Shown: positions 1 through 38,281 of the stretch, piece by piece
How the letters are laid out: each line of letters starts with the position of its first letter
Position numbering within the stretch: the stretch's first letter is position 1
Source: a virus
Taxonomy: Duplodnaviria > Heunggongvirae > Uroviricota > Caudoviricetes
DNA length: 38,281 nt
Reading direction: 5' to 3' (one strand)
Virus record (IMG/VR): IMGVR_UViG_2737471992_000010
Location: 1-38,281 of that record
Translations under genes and position numbers: made by a program
Notes under the pieces: generated by a model
Told to the model about the DNA's origin: nothing
Databases searched by the model: none
Seen by the model: only the letters and a program-made list of their open reading frames with translations

Positions 1-516
1 ATGAAATTTAAAAAATGTCTTCTGCCTGTGGCAATGTTAGCGTCATTCACTCTGGCAGGATGCCAGTCAAATGCTGATGATCATGCCGCCGATGTTTATC
101 AAACCGATCAACTGAATACCAAACAAGAAACTAAAACCGTTAATATTATTTCCATTCTTCCCGCAAAAGTTGCCGTAGACAACGCCCAAAATAAACGGAA
201 CGCACAAGCCTTCGGCGCGCTTATTGGCGCTGTCGCTGGCGGTGTTATCGGCCACAACGTCGGGTCTGGCAGCAATTCCGGAACGACGGCAGGTGCAGTT
301 GGCGGCGGAGCTGTAGGCGCGGCAGCGGGTTCTATGGTGAATGATAAAACCTTAGTGGAAGGTGTTTCTTTAACATATAAGGAAGGCACCAAAGTGTATA
401 CCTCCACCCAAGTGGGTAAAGAGTGCCAGTTTACGACAGGTTTAGCCGTTGTTATTACCACGACGTATAACGAAACGCGTATTCAGCCAAATACCAAATG
501 TCCTGAAAAGAGCTAA
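1..516 (+). CDS. Lipoprotein with glycine-zipper region (SlyB/Pcp-like); probable host flank
   Basis: 171 aa ORF; N-terminal signal peptide ending in lipobox LAGC; Gly/Ala-rich stretch GALIGAVAGGVIGHNVG...GGGAVGAAAG typical of glycine-zipper outer membrane lipoproteins; TAA stop at 514-516. Confidence 0.6.
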   Translation: MKFKKCLLPVAMLASFTLAGCQSNADDHAADVYQTDQLNTKQETKTVNIISILPAKVAVDNAQNKRNAQAFGALIGAVAGGVIGHNVGSGSNSGTTAGAVGGGAVGAAAGSMVNDKTLVEGVSLTYKEGTKVYTSTQVGKECQFTTGLAVVITTTYNETRIQPNTKCPEKS

Positions 517-531
517 TAATCAGGAGGAGTC

Positions 532-1071
532 ATGAAGAAAGTTTTTCTTTGCGCCATCTTAGCCTCCTTAAGCTATCCGGCTATCGCCTCATCATTGCAG
601 GATCAACTCTCGGCTGTCGCAGAAGCGGAACAGCAAGGTAAAAATGAAGAGCAAAGGCAGCATGACGAATGGGTCGCGGAGCGCAACAGGGAAATCCAGC
701 AAGAGAAGCAACGTCGCGCAAACGCCCAGGCCGCGGCTAATAAAAGAGCGGCAACGGCAGCAGCGAATAAGAAAGCTCGTCAGGATAAACTGGACGCCGA
801 AGCCACTGCGGACAAAAAACGCGATCAAAGTTATGAAGATGAGCTACGTAGCTTAGAGATTCAGAAACAAAAACTGGCGCTGGCGAAAGAAGAAGCCCGC
901 GTTAAGCGCGAAAACGAATTTATCGATCAGGAACTGAAGCACAAAGCTGCGCAAACCGATGTGGTGCAATCTGAAGCTGACGCAAACAGAAATATGACTG
1001 AAGGCGGTCGCGATCTGATGAAAAGCGTGGGTAAAGCAGAAGAGAATAAATCAGATAGCTGGTTTAACTAA
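532..1071 (+). CDS. Secreted charged coiled-coil protein of unknown function
   Basis: 179 aa ORF; AGGAGG-like RBS (caggaggagtc) just upstream of ATG; signal peptide MKKVFLCAILASLSYPAIASS; remainder Lys/Glu/Ala/Gln-rich. Confidence 0.55.
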   Translation: MKKVFLCAILASLSYPAIASSLQDQLSAVAEAEQQGKNEEQRQHDEWVAERNREIQQEKQRRANAQAAANKRAATAAANKKARQDKLDAEATADKKRDQSYEDELRSLEIQKQKLALAKEEARVKRENEFIDQELKHKAAQTDVVQSEADANRNMTEGGRDLMKSVGKAEENKSDSWFN

Positions 1072-3158: not shown

Positions 3159-5621
3159 TCAATTCCCTGTTAATTGCAAAACTTGCTCTTCCAGCTTTTT
3201 AACCCTGCGTCTCATCATCGCAGATTCCAGAATCAGAGCCTCTTCATAACGGATACCGTAACATTCACCAGCCTCGACGGCTTCGCGTACCAGAACCTTT
3301 GTCTGTATAAGTGGGTAAACTCCTGCAGAATGCTCTTCTTCCGTCACATCCCTGTATTCTGCCGGGGTCTCATTCCACTTGTCATAACAGATAAATGCCA
3401 GTCGTGACACATCTATGCCTTCATTCTGAAATACACTGATAACATGCTGCGCAACTGCACCAAAGTGCCATCTTGCTCCGTCTTTACCTTTCACTTCGAT
3501 CCTGTCAAGGTACTGGTATGAAACCCATTCCACTCTTTCCCATGCGTCCAGTATTTTCTCATCAATAACCTCTGGAGCAGTCTTGAAACGCGCATCGGAC
3601 AGCACCGTAAACGCTGACTGGGTAAATCCCCCCGACCATGCACGACCAGCCAACCCAAGAGAATAAGTATTCGTTGTCGATGGTGTCATGGCTGAATCAG
3701 AAAACTGTATATATTCTGAATTTCCAGTAGATATTCGAATATTTCCATTTATTAGCGACATAGTGCCTTTAGTATTATCACTATTGAATAATTTCAATTG
3801 CGAACTTATACCGCCTCCCACAGCCAGAGATACATCGCCTTCAGCAAGCATTCTGAATTTATCTGCAGAAACAAGCGTCTGGTTAGCAAGGTTAAAATAT
3901 TTAACCCACCATTCAAAACGCCCTGACATAGTCCCAACGTACTGACCAAGCGCAGGGACGTGAACAACATTGCTATTTGTAGTGCCGTCTATACTGGAAA
4001 TACCAGTCACCGCTGATGCAGAACTCAGAATATTATTTCTGTCACCCGGATGTTTAATTTCAACAAAGTTCCTGATACACCCTTCCTCGAAGGTAACCAC
4101 GCCGGAAGAACTATACATGGGGAATATTGACGCATAATTACTGCGTGCAGCATCTAAGAAACGAATGGTTGTAGATGTCTGCAGATCTCCTGATTCATTT
4201 TTCCCATCACACCCAGTCATTAGAATATTACTGGCAATATTATTATTTCCCTGAACGGTGACTCCGTGCGCCTGCTTTGCGTCCGATTCAGAGTAATCAA
4301 CCAGCACATTCGAAATCAGGTTACCAGTCCCCTTGCCAACAACTACTGCGGCGTATTTTGGGTTGTTAGCCATTACACTGCTAATGATATTATTCGTTGG
4401 GGCAGTTTCCGTCTCAGTTCCATTGTAAACAACGTGCTGACACTCTTCACCAATAACATTGCTGACAATGTTATATTTTGCTGCTGTTTTAAGTTCCACT
4501 GCACCAAACTGAGGATAATTTCTGGCTATCACACCATCAATTAGCGTATTTTGCGATGAATCAAAAAGCACACAACCTGCTTTTTTATTATTTGCGAACC
4601 CTAAATACTCTCCTCTTATATCTCTAACAATGTAACCTGACGGAATACCATTATTCGGATAAGCGATCAAGCTAAATCCTGTTCCTCGCGTATTTGTAAA
4701 TCTGATATTTTTAACCGATACATCATGGCCACCTGAAAATGACACCTGGTGTCCCTGCACACTATCATCTGATTTATTTCCCATAATTGTTAGCGTACTA
4801 AGCATGCCACCATCGGGCATGTTAAAAACCAGATGATTACCATCTCTGTCATACTGTTTTATCGTTCCCCCACCTGTTCCGTACAAGCCACAACGTGAAA
4901 GAGAAACTAAAGATGTATTGAATACCCCTTCCGGAACAAAAACACTGCTAAACGAATGTAATGATTTTGTAAAAGCATCCTTGTTATCATTTAAGATTCC
5001 ATTTTGAGCTCCAAAATCCTTAATGCTGACACCATCACGCATCTTATCCTGGAACGTTCTGTATACCGCTCCAGAACCATACTGAATAAACCAACCAAAA
5101 CCACCAATAACTCCGGCGATTGCAGCATCGACATAATTACGCATTGAGCGATTATTTACAGCGTCCTGCTCAAGTGATGGATCGGCAAGGTTAGATATTC
5201 TGTTTTGCTTTGCATCGTAATATTTTGCAAGCAAAGATGGTTTCATCAATGCACGTCTGAACCACCCAAAACATCGCTGGATCAGCATCGTCAGGTAGTC
5301 AAATGCATCCTCATGAACTTCGGGGAAAAATTTTCCCTGATTGCGAAGATCAGTCTCCTGCACCACATCAAGCACACGCTCTATCGTGATTCGCCAGCCA
5401 GCAGCAAGCGGCGACGGAAGAACCACTGCACCGCCACTATAAGTTCCCGCCCCTGTTACCGTATAACCAGCATCCAGCACTAGTTTTGTAACGTTACCGT
5501 TAAGGTCAGACACCTGAACAACCAGGTCGGATTTTTTGAAAATACGGAAGGTATACGGAAATGATGTCGTAACGCCGTTACCTGTGTATTCGTTGTGGTC
5601 AACTTCGGTTGAGACCGTCAT
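3159..5621 (-). CDS. Tail fiber/tailspike: T7 gp17-like N-terminal adaptor, beta-helix (depolymerase-like) body, C-terminal self-cleaving intramolecular chaperone (peptidase S74-like)
   Basis: 820 aa; N-terminus EYTGNGVTTSFPYTFRIF...LVVQV resembles the T7 tail fibre N-terminal domain; central Gly/Asn/Ser-rich repeats typical of right-handed beta-helix; C-terminal segment with SDARFK motif and coiled-coil tail characteristic of the endosialidase-type chaperone domain. Confidence 0.85.
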   Translation of the reverse strand: MTVSTEVDHNEYTGNGVTTSFPYTFRIFKKSDLVVQVSDLNGNVTKLVLDAGYTVTGAGTYSGGAVVLPSPLAAGWRITIERVLDVVQETDLRNQGKFFPEVHEDAFDYLTMLIQRCFGWFRRALMKPSLLAKYYDAKQNRISNLADPSLEQDAVNNRSMRNYVDAAIAGVIGGFGWFIQYGSGAVYRTFQDKMRDGVSIKDFGAQNGILNDNKDAFTKSLHSFSSVFVPEGVFNTSLVSLSRCGLYGTGGGTIKQYDRDGNHLVFNMPDGGMLSTLTIMGNKSDDSVQGHQVSFSGGHDVSVKNIRFTNTRGTGFSLIAYPNNGIPSGYIVRDIRGEYLGFANNKKAGCVLFDSSQNTLIDGVIARNYPQFGAVELKTAAKYNIVSNVIGEECQHVVYNGTETETAPTNNIISSVMANNPKYAAVVVGKGTGNLISNVLVDYSESDAKQAHGVTVQGNNNIASNILMTGCDGKNESGDLQTSTTIRFLDAARSNYASIFPMYSSSGVVTFEEGCIRNFVEIKHPGDRNNILSSASAVTGISSIDGTTNSNVVHVPALGQYVGTMSGRFEWWVKYFNLANQTLVSADKFRMLAEGDVSLAVGGGISSQLKLFNSDNTKGTMSLINGNIRISTGNSEYIQFSDSAMTPSTTNTYSLGLAGRAWSGGFTQSAFTVLSDARFKTAPEVIDEKILDAWERVEWVSYQYLDRIEVKGKDGARWHFGAVAQHVISVFQNEGIDVSRLAFICYDKWNETPAEYRDVTEEEHSAGVYPLIQTKVLVREAVEAGECYGIRYEEALILESAMMRRRVKKLEEQVLQLTGN

Positions 5622-5724
5622 GTTAAATCTCCAGATAGTCGCAGCACCCGTTGCGCCGCATATCTGGTTATTCTATTACCTGAAAAACCATATATGGATA
5701 AAAAGACTATAAATACCAATAGAT

Positions 5725-5741
5725 ATTACCTTTCGGGTAAT
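5725..5741. promoter_or_regulatory. 17-bp palindromic operator-like site ATTACC-TTTCG-GGTAAT
   Basis: Perfect inverted repeat in the divergent region between the tail fiber start (5621) and the small antirepressor-like gene (5817). Confidence 0.6.
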
Positions 5742-5779
5742 TTGCAAAACGTGCTGGATAGCAAACAAATTATTTGTTA

Positions 5780-5795
5780 CTGTATAAACATACAG
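5780..5795. promoter_or_regulatory. LexA (SOS) box CTGT-N8-ACAG
   Basis: Sequence tacTGTATAAACATACAGtt: perfect CTGT / ACAG half-sites with an AT-rich 8-nt spacer, 22 nt upstream of the ATG at 5817 and overlapping a TATAAA -10-like hexamer. Confidence 0.65.
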
Positions 5796-5816
5796 TTATT
5801 GCATGGAGAAGATAAG

Positions 5817-6074
5817 ATGCAGCAGTATCACTATCCACTGGAAGACGGATTTACCGAAAGGATTCACACGCCGGGAGGCGTCAGGTCACTGGTGGAGGGA
5901 TCGCACTTGATGAAATTACTCCGGGATCTCGATAAGGATGGATTTAATGTCGATGGCCCACTTGCCGAACTGACTGCACTGATTAACTACGTCACCAGCT
6001 CACAGATGTCTATGCGGGATCTGCAAACACATCTCGACTATTGTGCCGAACAATTACGAAAACAAACCAGATAA
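5817..6074 (+). CDS. Small protein paralogous to the C-terminal domain of the antirepressor (candidate LexA-controlled antirepressor)
   Basis: 85 aa from the internal ATG with GGAGAA RBS; aligns with residues about 140-218 of the 6392..7048 product (PLEDGF.ERIHTPGGV..L.EGSHLM.LL..L...G..V.G..AELT....Y). The track ORF from 5694 is an upstream extension without RBS. Confidence 0.6.
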   Translation: MQQYHYPLEDGFTERIHTPGGVRSLVEGSHLMKLLRDLDKDGFNVDGPLAELTALINYVTSSQMSMRDLQTHLDYCAEQLRKQTR

Positions 6075-6104
6075 GGTTTGCAATTACCAAATGGAGTGCT
6101 TATA

Positions 6105-6121
6105 TTTACCTTTGCGGTAAA
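6105..6121. promoter_or_regulatory. 17-bp palindromic operator-like site TTTACC-TTTGC-GGTAAA
   Basis: Perfect inverted repeat, itself nested inside a longer inverted repeat GGAGTGC (6093-6099) / GCACTCC (6130-6136). Confidence 0.55.
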
Positions 6122-6211
6122 TTTACATCGCACTCCTCTTGTGCCATAGTAATCGGGCACTGGCAAAATCCAGTGCCGGGATTGGTCTCCCGGATTACTA
6201 AGTGGCGCATA

Positions 6212-6233
6212 CCACGCCAGACGTGGTTTTTTT
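6212..6233 (+). terminator. Weak terminator-like hairpin plus U-tract
   Basis: CCACG-CCAGA-CGTGG followed by seven T; lies downstream of GC-rich hairpins at 6156-6193. Confidence 0.35.
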
Positions 6234-6391
6234 ATGCGTATAGCACAGTCATGCCAGAATTATGGTGGGCTGAATGGGGGTCCGAAAGGACGCCGGTACC
6301 ACTTAGGCCGGTAAGACCAACTCCGTTCAGTTCACCACCATCTGATTGGTCTCAGCGGTGGTGATGTAATTCGCTAAGTGGAGACGCCATC

Positions 6392-7048
6392 ATGAACGCT
6401 CAACTCATCCCCGTATTCAACGGCACTATATCTAACGAAACAGCCCTACTTTGTAATGCCCGCGATCTGCACGCTTTTTTAGGTGTTAAAAAGGTGTTTG
6501 CAGCATGGATTACAAATCGCATATCAGAATACGAATTCATTGAAAATCAAGACTATATTTTGCTTTCCAATTTGGGAAAGCAAACATCTGGTAGAGGCGG
6601 CCACAACCGCAAAGAGTACCACCTCACCCTTGATACAGCCAAAGAGCTGGCGATGGTCGAGCGTAACGAAAAAGGTCGTCAGGTGCGACGCTACTTCATT
6701 GAATGCGAGAAACGTTTAAGACAACAAGAAACAAAAGTGGAGAAGGTCTTGTCAGGCTTCATGCCCGCCATTATGGAGGCGATCAAGCTGGAAGACAAAA
6801 AAGAATACAGCGCCCCACTGAAGCCCGGCTACCGCAGCCTGATTCATTCTCCGTCTGGTGTTCTCGGCCTGACGGAGAACTCACTGCTGATGAATCTGCT
6901 GAACAAGTTACAGGAAGACGGGCACGATGTATCGGGCGCGGCAGCGGAGCTGACCACCATGTTCTGCTACATCGTCGGTGTGAGCAAATGCCTGCGTGAT
7001 ATCCAGACCCACGCGGAGTACATCAACGACAAGGCAGGGTTCTTCTGA
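6392..7048 (+). CDS. Antirepressor (AntA-type N-terminal domain plus C-terminal domain)
   Basis: 218 aa; N-terminal region (VFNGT...[29 protein letters not shown]) resembles AntA/AntB antirepressor domains; GGAG RBS 10 nt upstream. Confidence 0.75.
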
Positions 7049-25364: not shown

Positions 25365-26840
25365 TTAAGCATAGGGATCGTAATCTGTGATGGCCTTGCC
25401 TTGCTGGTTCTGCTGCCCGGGAATTCGCAGACGCTTAGACACAGGGAACGCAAACGTCAGCAGTAGCGCATCGCCTTTACCAGGAGAACGCCCAAGTCGC
25501 TCTTTGATATCTTCCTTCGGTTCGATAACGATTTTACCGTCCACGCGAACTTTGTACTCTGCCGTCGACAGGTCGTCCGCTGTTTCCTGGTCATCCAGCA
25601 TGCCGCCGAGCCTCAGCCATGTCTTGCATGAGTTGAACATCTCCCCACGCTTGTTGAGCATCTGCGGGTCAGTAGACGCGCCACCGAACGGAACAAGTTG
25701 CCATGTACGACCCCAGCCATCACCGATTGACTTCAAACCGGTTCCGTAACCGAAGTCGATGAACACCGCGTCAGCCTGATACTGGTCTTCAAAGTCAGCG
25801 ATACGCTTCGCCATAATCAGATCGTCAGTGGTCTTGTTGCCAGTCCACAGCACCTTACTGTGCAGCCCCTGCCGCAGGTATATCACAGCGTCATCAACAC
25901 CGGAGTATGCCGGGTCAACGCCGATTATCACCGGAGCATGTGCCACCTGCGCAGCGGTTACCACCCGTTTCATTGCCTCGTCAGTAAGACCGGTAGGGAT
26001 AAACTGCAATTCAGATGCATCCGGGAATATGCCGCGCACACGGATTTTAACGAAGTCGCTGTCTTCCCCGTAGTCATCAACCCATTTCTGCAACTGCTGT
26101 TTGTTGGTGCCTTCCACCGTCCGGCTGTCAATCTGCGCAGTTTTCCAGCGGTGTTTATACTTGCGGAAACATTCACGGAATCGCCCGGTATTACGCGTCG
26201 GGTTTCCGAACGCCACCCAGATAATCTCAGTGTCTTCGTCCGTAAGCGCACCCTCAGCAACTTCCCACACCAGATCCGCAATGTTCGACGCTTCATCGAA
26301 TACCACGATGATGCGTTTGCGCTCGTTGTGTAATCCGGCGAATGCCTCAGTGTTGTGCTCAGACCAGGGGATTGCGTCAGCTCGCCACCGCTTGTCGTGC
26401 CCAGGATCATTGCTGTACATCGCGGTAGCGGTACAGGTAAACCAGTCTTTCGTGATAGCAAGGTTCGACCACTTGATAATTTCCGGCCAGGTCTTCGTTC
26501 GTAGCTGGTTGTCGGTGTTGGCGGTCACCACGACCTTACAATCCTCGCAAGTGGACATGCCCCAGTTGATCAGCATTGAGATGAATGCGGATTTACCAAT
26601 ACCGTGACCAGAAGCGCGTGCCAGCATAAGCGGCTGATAGCGCGTCTCTGGATTCTGCAGGTGATCACGTATCTCTCGGAACGCATCAGCCTGCCACTGA
26701 CGTGGACCGGTGGCATGTGCCAGTTCAGTCCCCTCTTCCCCCCACGGGAACGCATAGAGGGCATAGCCAAGCGGATCGTGAGTGAACCCTGCAATATCCT
26801 CGATCAACTGTTCTTCAGGAGATAACGCTGCATCTGTCAC
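25365..26840 (-). CDS. Terminase large subunit
   Basis: 491 aa; Walker A-like ASGHGIGKS, downstream acidic nuclease-type motifs; follows the small subunit gene with a 4-nt overlap. Confidence 0.85.
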   Translation of the reverse strand: MTDAALSPEEQLIEDIAGFTHDPLGYALYAFPWGEEGTELAHATGPRQWQADAFREIRDHLQNPETRYQPLMLARASGHGIGKSAFISMLINWGMSTCEDCKVVVTANTDNQLRTKTWPEIIKWSNLAITKDWFTCTATAMYSNDPGHDKRWRADAIPWSEHNTEAFAGLHNERKRIIVVFDEASNIADLVWEVAEGALTDEDTEIIWVAFGNPTRNTGRFRECFRKYKHRWKTAQIDSRTVEGTNKQQLQKWVDDYGEDSDFVKIRVRGIFPDASELQFIPTGLTDEAMKRVVTAAQVAHAPVIIGVDPAYSGVDDAVIYLRQGLHSKVLWTGNKTTDDLIMAKRIADFEDQYQADAVFIDFGYGTGLKSIGDGWGRTWQLVPFGGASTDPQMLNKRGEMFNSCKTWLRLGGMLDDQETADDLSTAEYKVRVDGKIVIEPKEDIKERLGRSPGKGDALLLTFAFPVSKRLRIPGQQNQQGKAITDYDPYA

Positions 26841-27433
26841 TGATTGCCATCCTGACGTTCTTTCAGTCTCTTCCTGGCTGCCGCTATGCGATCAGCAATT
26901 GTCACATTCACATTAACATCCAGGCGTTCTTTGAATGCATTGACATCGACGTGCTTACCAATCAGCTCAAGGTTCTTCACCTTGTCAGGCCATTTAATTT
27001 TTTTGAGGATTGTCTCTATCGAATCCTCGTTCATGTTCATGATGGTCGATGACAGATCAAAGCCGCTAAGCGTAGTGCGCCAGATTTTCGGCCACTCGCG
27101 GATTGGCTTAAGGCTCCCATCGTCGTTGAGGATATCAATCACGTCCATCTGGTCGATCTCCACCAGGCGCATGAGAACGTAATCAGCACTGACGCGCATT
27201 CGTTTGTTGCGCTCCTCCATCAACTCGGCAATCCGTTTTTGAATGCGTTCATCGCGCATCATGACACTGGCTTTAACTGCCGCTGTATTTGGGGAGAATC
27301 CTGCGTTAATCGCTGCCTGAGTCTGGTTTTCAGGCGTTTTGATGTATGACTGGCAATAAGCCTCCTGCATTGCTGTTAGTGGCTTAAATTGCGTTGATTT
27401 GCGTTTATAGGCTTTAGGTTCAGCAGGCATCAT
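26837..27433 (-). CDS. Terminase small subunit
   Basis: About 198 aa from MMPAEPKAYKRK; conserved TAMQEAYCQSYIKTP...AAINAGFSPNTA region; the track N-terminal extension (27434-27511) looks spurious. Confidence 0.7.
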   Translation of the reverse strand: MMPAEPKAYKRKSTQFKPLTAMQEAYCQSYIKTPENQTQAAINAGFSPNTAAVKASVMMRDERIQKRIAELMEERNKRMRVSADYVLMRLVEIDQMDVIDILNDDGSLKPIREWPKIWRTTLSGFDLSSTIMNMNEDSIETILKKIKWPDKVKNLELIGKHVDVNAFKERLDVNVNVTIADRIAAARKRLKERQDGNQ

Positions 27434-29148: not shown

Positions 29149-29784
29149 TCACTCTCCCTTGATGCCAATGTTTACAGCTTGGCAAGCCTCTTTGAGCACC
29201 CAGTCAACAGCGTCTTTCCATGCTCCGGTTTCGACTGGCGGGTTCTCACGTTTTACCTGCTCATAAAAACGCACCGCTTTAATCAGTCCTTCAGGTACTA
29301 CTGGCGATGGCTGTTTAGCTTCTAAATCAGCAATTCTGTCAACTACGGCATCTACTGCATCTGAAAAACCGAACCAGTTACTCCACTCAGGCCTATCCCC
29401 GGTTGCTGCAAAATACATATCAGCTAAAGCAGACTCAGCATGGTCACGCTCGTTAATGAGTTGCTCTTCGCTTTTCTCCAGTTCAGCAATACGCTTACTT
29501 CCATCCGAGATAACACCTTCGTAATATTCACGCTGCTCGTTGAGTTTTGATTTTGCCAACTCCAGTTGTTTTGTTAGTTCCGCAATACGGCAAACATCGT
29601 TGATACGCGTTTCCTCTAATGCGTTGATCTCATCCAACAATGCCAGCGCGATATCTGGCGAAAAGTGCTTCATAAAATCGTTAAGCGCATTAATTCGCTG
29701 ATCGAAAGGCATTACAGGTGCTTCACCAGCAATTTTTGTTTTTTCAGCGATTTCACGAAGCTTTTGATAATCAATCTTGCTCAC
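29149..29784 (-). CDS. Ead/Ea22-like coiled-coil protein
   Basis: 211 aa, charged coiled-coil, in the early-right accessory region. Confidence 0.45.
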   Translation of the reverse strand: MSKIDYQKLREIAEKTKIAGEAPVMPFDQRINALNDFMKHFSPDIALALLDEINALEETRINDVCRIAELTKQLELAKSKLNEQREYYEGVISDGSKRIAELEKSEEQLINERDHAESALADMYFAATGDRPEWSNWFGFSDAVDAVVDRIADLEAKQPSPVVPEGLIKAVRFYEQVKRENPPVETGAWKDAVDWVLKEACQAVNIGIKGE

Positions 29785-30266
29785 TGGTTGCCCTCCTTCA
29801 TAAAAATAATCCAGTGGGTCTTGTCACCCTTTCCTGTTCGTTGACCGATAACAGGCTTTCTGTCTGTCAGTGCCAATATTTGGCGAACAGGTATTTGCGT
29901 TTCATTCCATTTAAAAATCAGAACACCATATGGCCACAACACACGAAAGGCTTCTTTAAATCCCTGCCGCAAATCATCACGCCAGGTATCTTTATTCAGC
30001 CGTCCATATTTCTTTCCCATCCAGGCGTTATCACCAACACGCTCAAGATGCGGAGGGTCGAATACAACAACCGGAAACGATGCGTCTGCAAATGGTAATG
30101 CACGAAAATCTGCTATCAGGTCAGGGCTAATTATCAGCCGTCGGCCATCACACAATATGTGATCTTCCTTTCTGATATCGCTAAATATCGCCCGGTCGTC
30201 CTTCTTATCGAACCAGAACATGCGACTGCCACAGCACATGTCGAGGATTGCTGCATGTCCAGTCAC
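29781..30266 (-). CDS. Small orphan DNA methyltransferase (amino-methyltransferase type, DPPH motif)
   Basis: 161 aa; SAM-binding-like LDMCCGSR near the N-terminus and catalytic-type tetrapeptide DPPH (VVVFDPPHL); no adjacent restriction gene. Confidence 0.55.
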   Translation of the reverse strand: MTGHAAILDMCCGSRMFWFDKKDDRAIFSDIRKEDHILCDGRRLIISPDLIADFRALPFADASFPVVVFDPPHLERVGDNAWMGKKYGRLNKDTWRDDLRQGFKEAFRVLWPYGVLIFKWNETQIPVRQILALTDRKPVIGQRTGKGDKTHWIIFMKEGNQ

Positions 30267-34376: not shown

Positions 34377-34397
34377 AATCATATTTTTCAGTAAGTA

Positions 34398-34421
34398 AGC
34401 CGCCTTCTGGCGGCTTTTTTA
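34398..34421 (+). terminator. Rho-independent terminator after the repressor gene
   Basis: AGCCGCC-TTCT-GGCGGCT stem-loop followed by TTTTTT. Confidence 0.65.
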
Positions 34422-34432
34422 TTGCCTATTTG

Positions 34433-34511
34433 ATTACCTAACGGGTAATTTTTTTAACTCATATCTATTGACATCAAACCAGATACGCATAATTATTACC
34501 TCAACGGTAAC
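34433..34511 (+). promoter_or_regulatory. PL-like promoter with two flanking operator sites (34433-34449 ATTACC-TAACG-GGTAAT; 34495-34511 ATTACC-TCAAC-GGTAAC)
   Basis: Consensus -35 TTGACA at 34468-34473, -10-like AATTAT about 17 nt later overlapping the second palindrome; GAGG RBS and ATG at 34530 follow. Confidence 0.55.
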
Positions 34512-34684: not shown

Positions 34685-34984
34685 ATGAACGTTAATCAGC
34701 AGAAAAATCTTCAAAAAATCATGCTGGCATTCGACAAGGACTACCGCCTGTCAGAACAGCTATATGACCGACAAGTTGAACTGATTGAGAGTATCCGGCT
34801 TCATCAACTGGCATCAACTTTCGACGTTGTAACAGTTAAAGGCGTTCGCCAGGAAGTACTGGAGGCCGCTAAAGACAGTCCAGAGTTCGAAGAACTGATG
34901 GATTCCTACCGGCGCGAGGCAATGGCAATTATCGCCCGCTGGGATCTGGCTGATCAGCTTGATGGGCAGAGGGACGCGGCATGA
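34685..34984 (+). CDS. Hypothetical early protein
   Basis: 99 aa from ATG 34685 with GGGAGGG RBS; the track start at 34670 lies inside the RBS. Confidence 0.5.
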   Translation: MNVNQQKNLQKIMLAFDKDYRLSEQLYDRQVELIESIRLHQLASTFDVVTVKGVRQEVLEAAKDSPEFEELMDSYRREAMAIIARWDLADQLDGQRDAA

Positions 34985-35802
34985 AACCGGGAATTTATTT
35001 CGATATCAGCAACGAGGACTACCACGCCGGTGACGGCGTGAGTAAGTCGCAGCTAGATATGGTGGCTAAGAACCCTGCCCTTCTGAAATGGGTGAAGGCT
35101 GCTCCGGAAGACGAAGAGAAGAAGTCTGCACTGGACATGGGTACTGCTCTGCACTGTCTGCTTCTGGAACCTGGAGAGTTTGACAAACGCTTCATCGTTT
35201 CACCGAAATTCGATCGTCGGACAAAACAAGGTAAAGCTGACGAAGAGGCATTTATTCGTGATGTAGCGGATATGGGGATTTCGGTACTTGATGCAGAGCA
35301 GTGGCGAAAACTGGAGCTGATGCGTGATAGCGCAATGGCTCACCCGGCGGCACGCTGGATGTTGGAAGCACCTGGTTACTGCGAAGCATCAATGTACTGG
35401 AACGATGAAGAGACGGGTGAGTTGTGCCGAATTCGTCCAGACAAATGGCTGAACGAGCACAACGTGATCGTCGACGTGAAAAAGGTTGCAGATATGGACC
35501 GTTTTGCACGCCACATCGAGGAATTCCGCTACCACGTGCAGGACGCAATGTACCGCGAAGGCGCAATGAGGGTTACTGGTCAGCCGCATGGTTTTTTCTT
35601 TCTTGCCGTGAGCGAAAGCATTGATTGTGGTCGGTATCCGGTACGCGTGTTCGAGCTGGATGCGCAGGATGTCGATGCCGGGCACGCTCTGTTCCGCCGG
35701 GATCTGAATACCTATCACGAATGCCGCATCAATGATGAATGGGGCGGTGTGGAAATCATTAAACGCCCTGAGTGGGCACGCAAACAGGATATGTACATAT
35801 GA
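34981..35802 (+). CDS. Recombination exonuclease, PD-(D/E)XK (YqaJ/RecE-like) family
   Basis: 273 aa; candidate catalytic D...(V/I)VDVKK motif; directly coupled to the annealase gene. Confidence 0.6.
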   Translation: MKPGIYFDISNEDYHAGDGVSKSQLDMVAKNPALLKWVKAAPEDEEKKSALDMGTALHCLLLEPGEFDKRFIVSPKFDRRTKQGKADEEAFIRDVADMGISVLDAEQWRKLELMRDSAMAHPAARWMLEAPGYCEASMYWNDEETGELCRIRPDKWLNEHNVIVDVKKVADMDRFARHIEEFRYHVQDAMYREGAMRVTGQPHGFFFLAVSESIDCGRYPVRVFELDAQDVDAGHALFRRDLNTYHECRINDEWGGVEIIKRPEWARKQDMYI

Positions 35803-36740
35803 GCAACGACATCGCAAACATCAACGCACCAGTAGACACAGCAATCGCTGGAACTGCTGCAACTATTTTCAGCCCAGACGGCTTGAACCAACTGATGAAA
35901 TTCGCCGAGGTAATGGCGCAAAGCCGCGTAACGGTACCGGCGCACCTCGCCGGGAAACCAGCTGATTGCATGGCCGTGGCAATGCAGGCTGCGCAGTGGG
36001 GAATGAACCCGTTTGCCGTGGCTCAGAAAACCCATGTTGTGAACGGCACGCTAGGTTATGAAGCCCAATTAGTAAACGCAGTTATCTCAACGATGTCGCC
36101 AACAAAAGATCGCATCAACTACGAGTGGTTCGGGCCGTGGGAACGCGTGATCGGTAAGTTTGTTGAGAAAACATCCAAAAACGGCAATCCATATATCGCA
36201 CCAGGCTGGACTCTAAAAGACGAAGAAGGCTGCGGTGTTCGCGTATGGGCAACCATGAAGGGCGAGGATCAACCTCGAGTGCTTGAGTTAATGCTGTCTC
36301 AAGCACAGGTAAGAAACTCCACACTTTGGGCCAGTGATCCGAAACAACAACTCGCATACCTTGCGACAAAACGCTGGTCTCGCCTGCACTGTCCTGACGT
36401 AATCATGGGCGTCTACACCCCAGACGAATTACAGGAAACGGCACCGCGCGTTGAGCGAGACATTACTCCGCAAACGACCACTGCTGCGGGAATGAACAGT
36501 CTGATCAACGCTAAACCAGCGAAAAAGCCTGATGAGCAAACGCGTAAATCGGACAGCCGTGATCCAGAAGAAATGCTGATGGCCTTTACCAGCGCAGCGA
36601 TGAATTACAGCACTGTCTCCGAACTGGATAAGGCTTACAAATACATTGCACAAAAACTTTCAGATGATGACGAACTGCTGGCAAAAGCCACCGACGTTTA
36701 CAGCGTTCGTCGGGAAGAATTAAACGAAACATCTATGTAA
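35799..36740 (+). CDS. Single-strand annealing protein, Bet/RecT-like
   Basis: 313 aa from ATG 35799 (overlaps exonuclease stop as ATATGA); QWGMNPF and ERDITP segments echo lambda Bet QYGLNPW and ERDITP. Confidence 0.6.
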   Translation: MSNDIANINAPVDTAIAGTAATIFSPDGLNQLMKFAEVMAQSRVTVPAHLAGKPADCMAVAMQAAQWGMNPFAVAQKTHVVNGTLGYEAQLVNAVISTMSPTKDRINYEWFGPWERVIGKFVEKTSKNGNPYIAPGWTLKDEEGCGVRVWATMKGEDQPRVLELMLSQAQVRNSTLWASDPKQQLAYLATKRWSRLHCPDVIMGVYTPDELQETAPRVERDITPQTTTAAGMNSLINAKPAKKPDEQTRKSDSRDPEEMLMAFTSAAMNYSTVSELDKAYKYIAQKLSDDDELLAKATDVYSVRREELNETSM

Positions 36741-36789: not shown

Positions 36790-37038
36790 ATGAAAGGTGC
36801 ATTAGGTAAGAAGGAACTCCTGGCGGTGGTTCCACTGTCATGGAGCACTATCGACCGTATGGAGCGCGCAGGGGAATTTCCTAAACGCTGGTATATCACC
36901 GATAAACGCTGCGCATGGAACCGTGATGAAGTTGAGCGTTGGCTTGATGAACGTCAGGCAGCAAGCCCGGCAGAGTTCCAGGGTAAAAAACCTCCTGTTC
37001 AGCAACGTGTATATCGTCCCGTGAGCAACGCGGCATGA
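36790..37038 (+). CDS. AlpA-family HTH protein (excisionase/regulator-like)
   Basis: 82 aa; GAGAGG RBS; segment LLAVVPLSWSTIDRMERAGEFPKRWYITDKRCAWNRDEVERWL fits the AlpA/Xis-type winged-HTH pattern. Confidence 0.6.
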   Translation: MKGALGKKELLAVVPLSWSTIDRMERAGEFPKRWYITDKRCAWNRDEVERWLDERQAASPAEFQGKKPPVQQRVYRPVSNAA

Positions 37039-37147
37039 GTGTGCTGCTAAGGCACTGGAGCAAATGGTCAGGATGGTACTTATTCCTGGCCTCTGTTTCA
37101 GCATGGCTTTATCTGCTGGCATTAATTTTCAGAGAGGGTTGGATTAA

Positions 37148-37447
37148 GTGAGAAAGTTAAGCCGACTTGAAAAATATCACATGAACAAGGTTTCAATGCG
37201 CAGTCCGTCAAAGATTGTCGCCGTTACTCCTGCGGCGATAGAGATCGAAAAACGCGCGATTGAAAGAGAGAAAAAAGGGCAGTTCCGCATTGCCGCTCAC
37301 CTTTGGCTTCAGTGTATGGATGTTGCTTCTGGTGATGTTGAGCGTGCAAGGATCGCGGTTCGCAGGGACCAATGTATCACAAAAGGTAACGGCCTTCGCC
37401 GTGGCGACTATAGCGGCATAGGATGTTGTGGGGTGGTTTATGACTAA
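37148..37447 (+). CDS. PerC-family transcriptional regulator-like protein
   Basis: Segment EKKGQFRIAAHLWLQCMDV...ERARIAVRRDQC fits the PerC/Pch pattern (KG..RRAA..W......ER..I..RR..C); GTG start at 37148 assumed, true start may be internal. Confidence 0.45.
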   Translation: MRKLSRLEKYHMNKVSMRSPSKIVAVTPAAIEIEKRAIEREKKGQFRIAAHLWLQCMDVASGDVERARIAVRRDQCITKGNGLRRGDYSGIGCCGVVYD

Positions 37448-38090
37448 GAAATACACACTAATCTATGCAGATCCACCCTGGGTATACCGGGACAAAGCCG
37501 CAGATGGTAATCGCGGTGCCGGTTTTAAATATCCGGTTATGAGTGTGCTGGATATCTGCCGCCTTCCTGTGTGGGATTTGGCCGATGAAAACTGTCTGTT
37601 GGCCATGTGGTGGGTGCCAACACAACCACTCGAAGCACTAAAAGTTGTTGAGGCCTGGGGATTCCGTCTGATGACCATGAAGGGATTCACGTGGATAAAA
37701 TGTGGTAGTCGACAACCAGATAAACTGGTTATGGGTATGGGGCACATGACTCGCGCCAATAGTGAAGATTGCCTGTTTGCAGTTAAGGGAAAACTACCTA
37801 CGCGCATTAATGCAGGGATCGTTCAGTCATTTACCGCACCGCGGCTTGAGCATTCAAGAAAACCAGATGTCGTTCGTGAAAAACTTGTGCAATTGTTAGG
37901 CGATGTTTCTCGCATTGAACTGTTCGCCCGCCAGTCGTCTCATGGCTTCGATGTTTGGGGTAATCAGTGCGAAGACCCGGCCGTGCAACTACACCCAGGA
38001 TACGCGTTGGATATTGGCGGATTAACAAATGCATTCAGCAATGCTCCGCTGTCACCAACAGACAACCAGGGACGGGAGCGTGCAGCATGA
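37440..38090 (+). CDS. DNA N6-adenine methyltransferase, MT-A70 family (orphan)
   Basis: 216 aa from MTKKYTLIYADPPW; catalytic DPPW motif near the N-terminus as in MT-A70 phage methylases; no restriction partner nearby. Confidence 0.7.
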   Translation: MTKKYTLIYADPPWVYRDKAADGNRGAGFKYPVMSVLDICRLPVWDLADENCLLAMWWVPTQPLEALKVVEAWGFRLMTMKGFTWIKCGSRQPDKLVMGMGHMTRANSEDCLFAVKGKLPTRINAGIVQSFTAPRLEHSRKPDVVREKLVQLLGDVSRIELFARQSSHGFDVWGNQCEDPAVQLHPGYALDIGGLTNAFSNAPLSPTDNQGRERAA

Positions 38091-38281
38091 ACAGGGCATC
38101 ACCTGCAGATTTAAGGAAATGCCTTGAAACTGCAAACATGCTTGCACATAGTGGGATCAGGTTTGTTCCAATTCCCGCTGTCACTGATGATGAATTTGCA
38201 ACGCTGTCAGCAATATTCGCAGACAAAATTGAATCACTGGCAGCAGAAGCAGAGATGGAAGAAAATCAGCAGAATAATTAA
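38087..38281 (+). CDS. Small hypothetical protein (64 aa)
   Basis: ATG overlaps the methylase stop (ATGA); ends with TAA exactly at the window edge. Confidence 0.4.
   Translation: MNRASPADLRKCLETANMLAHSGIRFVPIPAVTDDEFATLSAIFADKIESLAAEAEMEENQQNN

Follow-up and report, generated by a model that had tools for sequence, protein, structure and literature searches.

The stretch of DNA analysed here, which we call the window, comprises positions 1 to 38,281 of the IMG/VR virus record IMGVR_UViG_2737471992_000010. Its plus strand ends with three small genes, each overlapping the next: one for a PerC/ANR-like protein (37148-37447), one for a predicted SAM-dependent N6-adenine methyltransferase of the MT-A70 family (beta class; 37440-38090), and one for a 64-residue DUF1382 protein (38087-38281). 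The methylase gene, which is the subject of this analysis, encodes 216 amino acids in an intact frame from ATG to TGA, with the N-terminus MTKKYTLIYADPPWVYRDK. A longer, GTG-started frame at 37428 was listed mechanically; homologues of the methylase begin at ATG 37440. The catalytic motif IV, DPPW, can be read directly from the translation at residues 11-14 (37470-37481, plus strand).

By profile, motif order and fold, the protein is a member of the MT-A70 family. It matches Pfam PF05063 (MT-A70) over the full length of the profile (positions 1-172 of 172; E=3.1e-22, 79.8 bits against a cutoff of 23.9), the 'DNA methyltransferase' family phrog_359 (E=4e-120) and the PADLOC model MTase_II (E=1.8e-77). 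A catalytic core of approximately residues 1-180 is distinguished from a variable C-terminal tail, residues 188-216. When 32 homologues were compared, P12 and W14 of the catalytic motif proved invariant and D11 and P13 nearly so. The motif order is circularly permuted, with motif IV preceding the SAM-binding motif: DPPW at residues 11-14 and a conserved ELFAR at 160-164, which align with the DPPW and the LEIFARR of MTA1, respectively.

The nearest relatives in the PDB, as identified by phmmer, are Tetrahymena MTA1 (E=3e-13) and human METTL3. An AlphaFold2 model computed from the 32 homologues (mean pLDDT 74.5, pTM 0.76) has a well-predicted core, moderate confidence in the loops at residues 21-23 and 98-104, and low confidence in the last 15 or so residues. 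Foldseek searches with this model returned METTL3 catalytic chains at the top (E of about 1e-13, probability 1.00) and also MTA1, with TM scores of about 0.65-0.70; the predicted fold is thus METTL3/MTA1-like. The eukaryotic METTL3-METTL14 (RNA m6A) and ciliate MTA1-MTA9-p1-p2 (DNA 6mA) enzymes share the catalytic fold and DPPW with the phage protein, but they work only as heteromers, in which a paralogue without catalytic activity and subunits that bind DNA or RNA take part. The phage methylase, in contrast, is a bare catalytic domain of about 20% identity to the eukaryotic MT-A70 enzymes, and the window has no second MT-A70 gene.

Phage type, distribution and selection

The window represents a phiV10-like Uetakevirus, an epsilon15-like podophage, in reversed orientation relative to the phiV10 record. 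In phiV10 the same gene is p33 (YP_512288, 'putative adenine methylase / DNA methyltransferase'), which is 98% identical at the nucleotide level and has like neighbours: a PerC-like gene upstream, a DUF1382 gene downstream and a convergent integrase. An identical protein is recorded in RefSeq as 'MT-A70 family methyltransferase' (WP_024190122.1, 100% identity), encoded by the copy in E. coli NZ_CP182371. The annotation of the methylase dates back to the deposition of the phiV10 genome. It is present at 95% nucleotide identity or more in 538 of 5426 complete E. coli genomes (about 10%). Among viral contigs, 80 encode methylase proteins at least 97% identical to it; these are near-identical copies and carry no diversity. 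The wider family occurs in 512 of 50,697 phage records and forms 12,137 clusters at 50% identity (E of 0.001 or less). With a phiV10 annotation, a presence in roughly one in ten complete E. coli genomes and a family of more than 12,000 sequence clusters, the gene in itself adds nothing new.

Comparison of the core with that of the homologue from Stx2a phage PA8, computed ungapped and for this one pair, gave a dN/dS of 0.057. The methylase is under strong purifying selection, and hence is not decaying. The number of GATC sites speaks neither for nor against an activity of the enzyme as a mimic of the host Dam methylase: the window holds 140 of them against an expectation of 149 +/- 10, an ordinary density with neither depletion nor enrichment.

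The early operon and a second methyltransferase

The methylase is the penultimate gene of an early operon of nuclease, RecT and AlpA-like genes. On the plus strand, a terminator-like hairpin (34397-34416) follows an HTH repressor-like gene, and a promoter-like site, TTGACA-17-AATTAT, lies just beyond it (34468-34496; 10 of 12 positions). Both are consensus matches only; phiV10 has an annotated terminator at the place equivalent to the hairpin. Two small ORFs come next, and are followed by a recombination module annotated as such in RefSeq: a PD-(D/E)XK nuclease (34981-35802; Pfam DUF3799, E=6e-23) and RecT (35799-36740; Pfam RecT, E=2e-44), with ATGA overlaps within the module. An AlpA-like HTH protein of the excisionase/regulator type (36790-37038; Pfam Phage_AlpA, E=3e-5) and a 38-residue membrane ORF (37035-37151) correspond to phiV10 p36/p35; a match to phrog_17484 falls within this segment (36790-37151). 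The PerC-like gene, the methylase and the DUF1382 gene complete the series. Stop-on-start overlaps join the second small ORF (34670) to the genes as far as RecT, and AlpA to those as far as DUF1382; a gap of 49 nt separates RecT from AlpA. A consensus scan detected no plus-strand terminator-like site between the promoter-like site and the end of the window, and no internal promoter-like site upstream of the methylase within the operon. The segment 34397-34496 is thus, as judged from these sequence features, the probable start of an operon whose last genes are the methylase and the Orf63-like DUF1382 gene. The position of the repressor-like gene suggests that this operon is repressor-controlled, and it may be silent in a lysogen.

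The gene immediately upstream of the methylase is read from GTG 37148, while RefSeq places its start at ATG 37196, and its stop (37447) runs 8 nt past the methylase ATG, so that the two genes overlap. Its product matches Pfam PerC (E=6e-7) and, below the cutoff of that model, NCBIfam ANR_neg_reg, which describes negative regulators of AraC proteins (E=3.4e-5). It belongs to phrog_868, 'transcriptional activator', and is named 'PerC family transcriptional regulator' in RefSeq. Downstream, the ATG of the DUF1382 gene lies inside GCAGCATGAACAGG, where ATGA at 38087-38090 joins it to the methylase TGA in a 4-nt overlap. The DUF1382 protein (Pfam DUF1382, E=6e-30) is a homologue of the structure 8DSB (E=2e-13), which is lambda Orf63, a dimeric product of the exo-xis region that favours lytic development (PMC10869804). 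With an Orf63 homologue coupled to it, the methylase therefore has a place that corresponds in function to lambda's accessory exo-xis region, beside the integrase. The integrase itself is absent from the window, since the window ends exactly at the DUF1382 stop codon and the integrase has been cut off; in NZ_CP182371, the DUF1382 gene is followed by a convergent tyrosine integrase and then by guaA.

A second orphan methyltransferase is encoded on the minus strand at 29781-30266. This class I SAM-dependent enzyme of 161 residues carries DMCCGS and DPPH motifs and is unrelated to MT-A70. It matches phrog_954 'DNA methyltransferase' (E=9e-87) and the PADLOC models MTase_II (E=9e-73) and oMTase, for orphan methyltransferases (E=2e-49). 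PGAP names it 'class I SAM-dependent methyltransferase', and it is found in 945 of 5426 E. coli genomes; the PDB holds no sequence relative. phiV10 lacks it, and the present phage is in this respect a variant that has one methylase more. No restriction endonuclease or defence model was found beside either methylase: a PADLOC scan covered ten ORFs (both methylases, the neighbours on either side of the MT-A70 gene, and six ORFs that had so far been without assignment) and matched the two methylases only, and the phiV10 annotation contains no nuclease of the restriction-modification type. The MT-A70 gene is an orphan, without a cognate restriction gene among its neighbours (the PerC-like gene, the Orf63-like gene and the integrase), the scanned ORFs or the phiV10 annotation. 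A preliminary description of this DNA, made from the sequence alone, had pointed to an MT-A70-type methylase with DPPW near its N-terminus, translationally coupled to the next small gene and placed in a rightward early recombination/excision operon of a phage with two different orphan methylases. The profile match, the visible overlap of TGA and ATG, and the two unrelated, partnerless methylases on opposite strands bear this out, and the plus-strand nuclease, RecT and AlpA-like genes make the operon's designation a fair one in window coordinates.

Relatives with conflicting substrates

What do related enzymes modify? The published record on the family is in conflict, with GATC in DNA reported on one side and 16S rRNA, with an effect on prophage induction, on the other. 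In published tests, three members methylate GATC in DNA in vivo without any partner (PMC7556043; for M.EcoGV, as cited in PMC10810198 and PMC6602927). With protein p32 of Serratia phage BZS1, plasmid DNA from a dam- host became resistant to MboI and sensitive to DpnI (PMC7556043); the window methylase is 40% identical to it across the whole core (E=2e-48), and p32 differs by a 23-residue insertion. M.EfaBMDam of Tn1549 is cited as GATC-specific in PMC7556043. M.EcoGV, of the O104:H4 Stx phage, is likewise cited for GATC methylation in vivo in PMC10810198 and PMC6602927, and the former notes its high similarity to the enzyme of PA8. The window methylase is 82-83% identical to the Stx-phage enzymes, including that of the O104:H4 phage P13374; the identification of M.EcoGV with this Stx-phage protein follows PMC10810198. 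Such enzymes are annotated as GATC-specific in REBASE (PMC10810198, PMC6602927). All three resemble the window methylase in family, motif order, small single-domain architecture, orphan status and proximity to a phage integrase. BZS1 p32 also shares with it an ANR/PerC-like gene immediately upstream, whose product matches the NCBIfam ANR model at 1e-13.

A different substrate was reported for the closest biochemically studied relative, PA8 gp5 or M.EcoPA8orf6770P, by Gong, Chakraborty and Koudelka (NAR 2024; PMC10810198). On dam- DNA in vitro the activity of gp5 was near background; when co-purified with PNB-2, the product of the upstream gene, the enzyme preferred 16S rRNA. An intact gene raised spontaneous induction and virulence, whereas a DPPW-to-APPA mutant did not (PMC10810198). 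The same authors argue that over-expression in vivo, the source of the GATC results on relatives, may allow off-target methylation. Their own rRNA claim derives from an assay of SAM consumption, without identification of the modified base (PMC10810198).

How far does the PA8 system apply to the enzyme of the window? The two methylases are 83% identical over residues 1-187, DPPW included, and there the alignment stops: the C-terminal tails of about 27-29 residues are unrelated (...GYALDIGGLTNAFSNAPLSPTDNQGRERAA in the window, ...GIVKFLEKTNERKNDVDKGITS in PA8). It is this segment of the PA8 enzyme that the authors suspect of mediating PNB-2 binding (PMC10810198). The genomic setting is similar, with a place near the integrase in the early operon, an upstream small gene overlapping the methylase start, and a downstream DUF1382/Orf63-like gene whose product is 49% identical to that of the window. 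The upstream genes differ, however: in PA8 it encodes the 143-residue winged-helix protein PNB-2, in the window the PerC/ANR-like protein. PNB-2 is absent from the window, and no link between a window-type methylase gene and PNB-2 was found at 40 loci from as many species. We also considered whether PNB-2 is homologous to the PerC/ANR-like upstream proteins, and set the idea aside, as no similarity showed at the alignment depth reached: pairwise BLASTP found nothing, and hhalign, run with a 24-sequence PNB-2 alignment against ten wHTH-ANR proteins, gave a probability of 1%. Of the three testable features of a PA8-type two-subunit rRNA methylase, the window thus has the related catalytic subunit, and lacks the PNB-2 gene and the PA8-type tail. 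Since the preference for 16S rRNA depends on PNB-2 in PA8, it cannot be transferred directly to the window enzyme. A phiV10-type enzyme that occurs without PNB-2 offers a clean natural comparison for the dispute over GATC DNA and 16S rRNA as substrates.

Probable function and alternatives

We regard the gene as encoding a functional, restriction-less, phage-borne N6-adenine methyltransferase, an activity predicted from its sequence; what it modifies, at which sequence, when in the phage cycle and to what end we infer from its relatives and its position. Our preferred reading, which we hold with somewhat better than even confidence by analogy with those relatives, is that it would carry out Dam-like methylation of GATC in DNA and be expressed from the early operon during lytic growth. 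Judging from its operon position, the enzyme would be made after infection or induction and not constitutively in the lysogen. As its characterised relatives suggest, it would add a methyl group to the adenine of GATC, mimicking host Dam. It could then ensure full GATC methylation of fast-replicating phage DNA where host Dam is in short supply, or where the host has no Dam at all. Plausibly, the phage DNA would thereby escape restriction enzymes that cleave GATC and, while RecT-type recombination proceeds, nicking by MutH; the timing of induction could be affected as well. Against Dam mimicry counts the behaviour of PA8 gp5, the closest relative studied biochemically, with its preference for 16S rRNA in the presence of PNB-2 and its near-background activity on DNA. 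Nor is the benefit of a second GATC methylase obvious, given that every natural host genus is Dam+.

Could the enzyme primarily be an RNA methyltransferase, as proposed for M.EcoPA8orf6770P? In that case it would act with a small adaptor on the 16S rRNA of the host, tuning translation and the frequency of spontaneous prophage induction, and DNA methylation would be a weak side activity. The high identity to the PA8 enzyme is consistent with this, and the nearest structural relatives include METTL3, which modifies RNA, as well as MTA1, which modifies DNA. So is the position of the gene, coupled to an Orf63 homologue in a place like exo-xis, where genes of lambda and Stx phages influence the balance of lysis and lysogeny (PMC10869804), and so is the gene for a small helical protein that overlaps the methylase start, as PNB-2 does in PA8. 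However, PNB-2, the reported source of the rRNA preference, is missing here, and the upstream PerC/ANR-like protein has no detectable similarity to it; the C-terminal 29 or so residues suggested for PNB-2 binding are completely different; the rRNA claim derives from SAM consumption (PMC10810198); and three relatives methylate GATC DNA without a partner (PMC7556043). We consider this reading unlikely.

A second alternative retains DNA as the substrate but gives the enzyme a specificity other than that of Dam, either another short motif or a relaxed one, for anti-restriction or epigenetic purposes; it would then be a second layer of protection over the 161-residue methylase, or would act as a switch on phage promoters. 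A temperate phage with two orphan methylases fits this idea, as do the commonness of restriction protection among phage orphan methylases (PMC10810198) and the fact that specificity can shift within a family, another prophage methylase being relaxed (PMC7556043). Yet GATC is the target of every family member with a determined DNA specificity (PMC7556043; table in PMC6602927), and we detected no difference in a specificity domain, the core being conserved and only the low-confidence tail variable. Furthermore, SMRT methylomes of two STEC strains with M.EcoGV-type genes contained GATC and CTGCAG and no other motif, and known enzymes account for both (PMC6602927). This possibility appears quite doubtful to us. 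The preliminary description had taken the presence of two orphan methylases to imply layered anti-restriction or an epigenetic role in phage gene control, an implication that finds no support here, as the record on relatives speaks for GATC, which is the mark of host Dam, or for 16S rRNA. The comparison of methylomes of a lysogen and a cured strain, which it proposed, cannot decide the activity of the methylase: where the host is Dam+, a mimic of Dam would bring in no further motif, methylation of RNA would not show in the DNA, and the gene may not be expressed in the lysogen if its operon is repressor-controlled, as its position suggests.

That the gene is a decaying passenger with no current function is highly improbable, for although related phages have different genes as cargo in the variable slot that it fills, from the PerC-like gene to the integrase, and disrupted Stx-phage copies do exist (an IS629 insertion in PA2, PMC10810198, and half-length matches), its frame is intact, its catalytic motif is conserved, its dN/dS is as low as 0.057 and near-identical copies are spread across hundreds of genomes and viral contigs.

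PerC/ANR-like genes upstream of phage MT-A70 genes

Might the protein encoded directly upstream assist the methylase? We surveyed the neighbourhood of the methylase at 40 loci from 40 species, using an HMM built from PerC/ANR cores of both the window type and the BZS1 type to classify upstream genes. The placement of the methylase gene is that of mobile cargo: Uetakevirus-like prophages have it adjacent to the integrase, lambdoid nin regions have it with NinB on one side and RusA on the other, and at further loci its neighbours are HNH or PD-(D/E)XK genes. In 13 of the 40 species loci, the 1.3 kb upstream of the methylase contain a PerC/ANR-like gene, and elsewhere in those loci the model had a single match. 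Six of the 13 are not Uetakeviruses but prophages of different genera, and in these the stop and start codons of the two genes overlap.

Within the Uetakeviruses, the adjacency may reflect simple synteny. There the PerC-like gene forms part of the backbone, being present in 36 phage records that are all Uetakevirus-like, and in relatives from Salmonella, Enterobacter and Klebsiella other small genes stand between it and the methylase. In the literature cited here, we found no mention of what unrelated phages show repeatedly, namely a small PerC/ANR-like gene placed immediately before an MT-A70 gene. The recurrence raises the possibility that PerC/ANR-like helical proteins are dedicated partners of phage MT-A70 enzymes, serving to target or regulate them through a physical or a regulatory connection. 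We put this forward as a tentative lead and not as a finding, and think it rather improbable as it stands. By analogy, such a protein may be the counterpart of PNB-2 in Stx phages, or of METTL14 or p1/p2 in eukaryotes. The pairing is a testable lead on how minimal MT-A70 enzymes are targeted; a true partnership would tie m6A methylation to the virulence-gene regulators of the PerC/Pch/ANR family, and might reconcile the conflicting reports of DNA and RNA as substrates.

Three further ideas were examined and discarded. Fusions of PerC/ANR-like and MT-A70 domains, which could have served as Rosetta-stone evidence, occur only as two near-identical cases, each on a single contig; one (P0003) is explained by a 1-nt deletion in the overlap and the other (P0001) by an internal deletion, and no fusion was seen among 150 diverse representatives. 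The long C-terminal tail is not tied to a particular neighbour, as the same tail occurs in Salmonella and Enterobacter with different upstream (DUF1317, PDDEXK_5) and downstream genes. DUF1382 does not qualify as a conserved methylase partner either: only the phiV10 type and PA8 have it behind the methylase gene, and the survey of 40 species loci yielded no case.

Viral contigs that encode methylases of the BZS1 clade were inspected as well. A PerC/ANR-like gene is found directly upstream in 34 of 80 such contigs, which are not independent samples. About 20 more contigs encode, approximately 1 kb upstream of the methylase, a protein of 136-143 residues in which a winged helix is joined to an ANR domain. 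In size, these fusion proteins are similar to PNB-2.

Small genes upstream of the MT-A70 methylases

What precedes MT-A70 methylase genes? The protein encoded just upstream of the window methylase, at window 37148-37447 (+), matches both the Pfam PerC profile and, below its cutoff, that of NCBIfam ANR_neg_reg. Small proteins of the PerC-like and the ANR-like (AraC negative regulator) type seem to form a single family. PerC/ANR-like genes repeatedly sit directly 5' of MT-A70 methylase genes across unrelated phages. They are found just upstream of position 4001 in the non-Uetakevirus loci L019, L021, L022, L023, L029 and L041 and at 26703-26885 (-) in locus L124, and the phage whose methylase is experimentally GATC-specific is among those with such a gene directly upstream.

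A family of 136-170 aa proteins combines an N-terminal winged-helix domain with a C-terminal ANR/PerC-like domain, and its genes adjoin, or stand near, MT-A70 genes (L021 3546-4004, L022 3492-4004, L019 3567-4010, L160 489-920, L162 645-1055 and L186 822-1244). PNB-2 of Stx phages, the partner protein encoded just upstream of the methylase in PA8, matches these proteins in size and layout; homology between PNB-2 and them was not detectable (hhalign probability 1%).

The 3' junction of the methylase gene

The methylase (window 37440-38090, +) is coupled to a small gene at 38087-38281 (+), a homologue of lambda Orf63 (DUF1382; PDB 8DSB). Lambda Orf63 is a pro-lytic dimeric protein of the exo-xis region (PMC10869804). 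The PDB 8DSB file carries the label 'Xis (Excision72)'. In PA8 the methylase is likewise followed by a DUF1382/Orf63 family gene; in other genera no gene of this family lies behind the methylase. Numerous methylase homologues finish in AA-stop and share an ATGA with the gene that follows, although the following genes (Orf63-like, RusA and others) have no relationship to one another. This ending occurs at window 38079-38090 and in loci L004-L011, L015, L016, L018, L025, L027 and L035. At such a module boundary, it looks like a conserved recombination or coupling junction.

Fusions and mosaics

In-frame fusions are rare, being represented by P0003, P0001 and P0319 among Logan/NCBI proteins. P0003 is a PerC-methylase fusion that the loss of 1 nt from the 8-nt overlap is enough to produce, P0001 is a PerC-methylase fusion with an internal deletion, and P0319 joins a PNB-2-like fragment to a methylase fragment. 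Each is a single-contig variant, probably a mutation or an assembly error. The methylase P0068 (Enterobacter hormaechei; locus L207, 3001-3717) is a mosaic. Over the N-terminal half, 23-residue insertion included, it is like p32 of Serratia phage BZS1; over the C-terminal half and the tail it is like the window protein, which shows recombination inside the MT-A70 methylase gene family.

Other genes and the ends of the window

At window 29781-30266 (-), in the nin-like region between Ead/Ea22-like genes, the phage encodes another orphan methyltransferase. This protein of 161 aa carries the motifs DMCCGS and DPPH and matches the oMTase model of PADLOC. No solved structure related to it by sequence was found. 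The gene is absent from phiV10 and present in 945 of 5426 E. coli genomes. PhiV10 also differs in p37 (L001 29722-31482), annotated as one fused RecE/RecT ORF, whereas the window (34981-36740, +) and RefSeq have separate genes for the nuclease (273 aa) and RecT, with a 4-nt overlap.

The part matching phiV10 and phiv142-3 starts near 1162. Outside it, within window 1-1071 (+), lie two ORFs: one (1-516, +) codes for a glycine-zipper/TraT-like lipoprotein, the other (532-1071, +) for a DUF5384 protein. Both are probably cargo carried at the opposite prophage end. The window ends, at 38281, with the stop codon of the Orf63-like gene. In a complete E. coli genome (NZ_CP182371, L123), a convergent tyrosine integrase gene (5339-6595) overlaps the equivalent end, and the prophage borders guaA.
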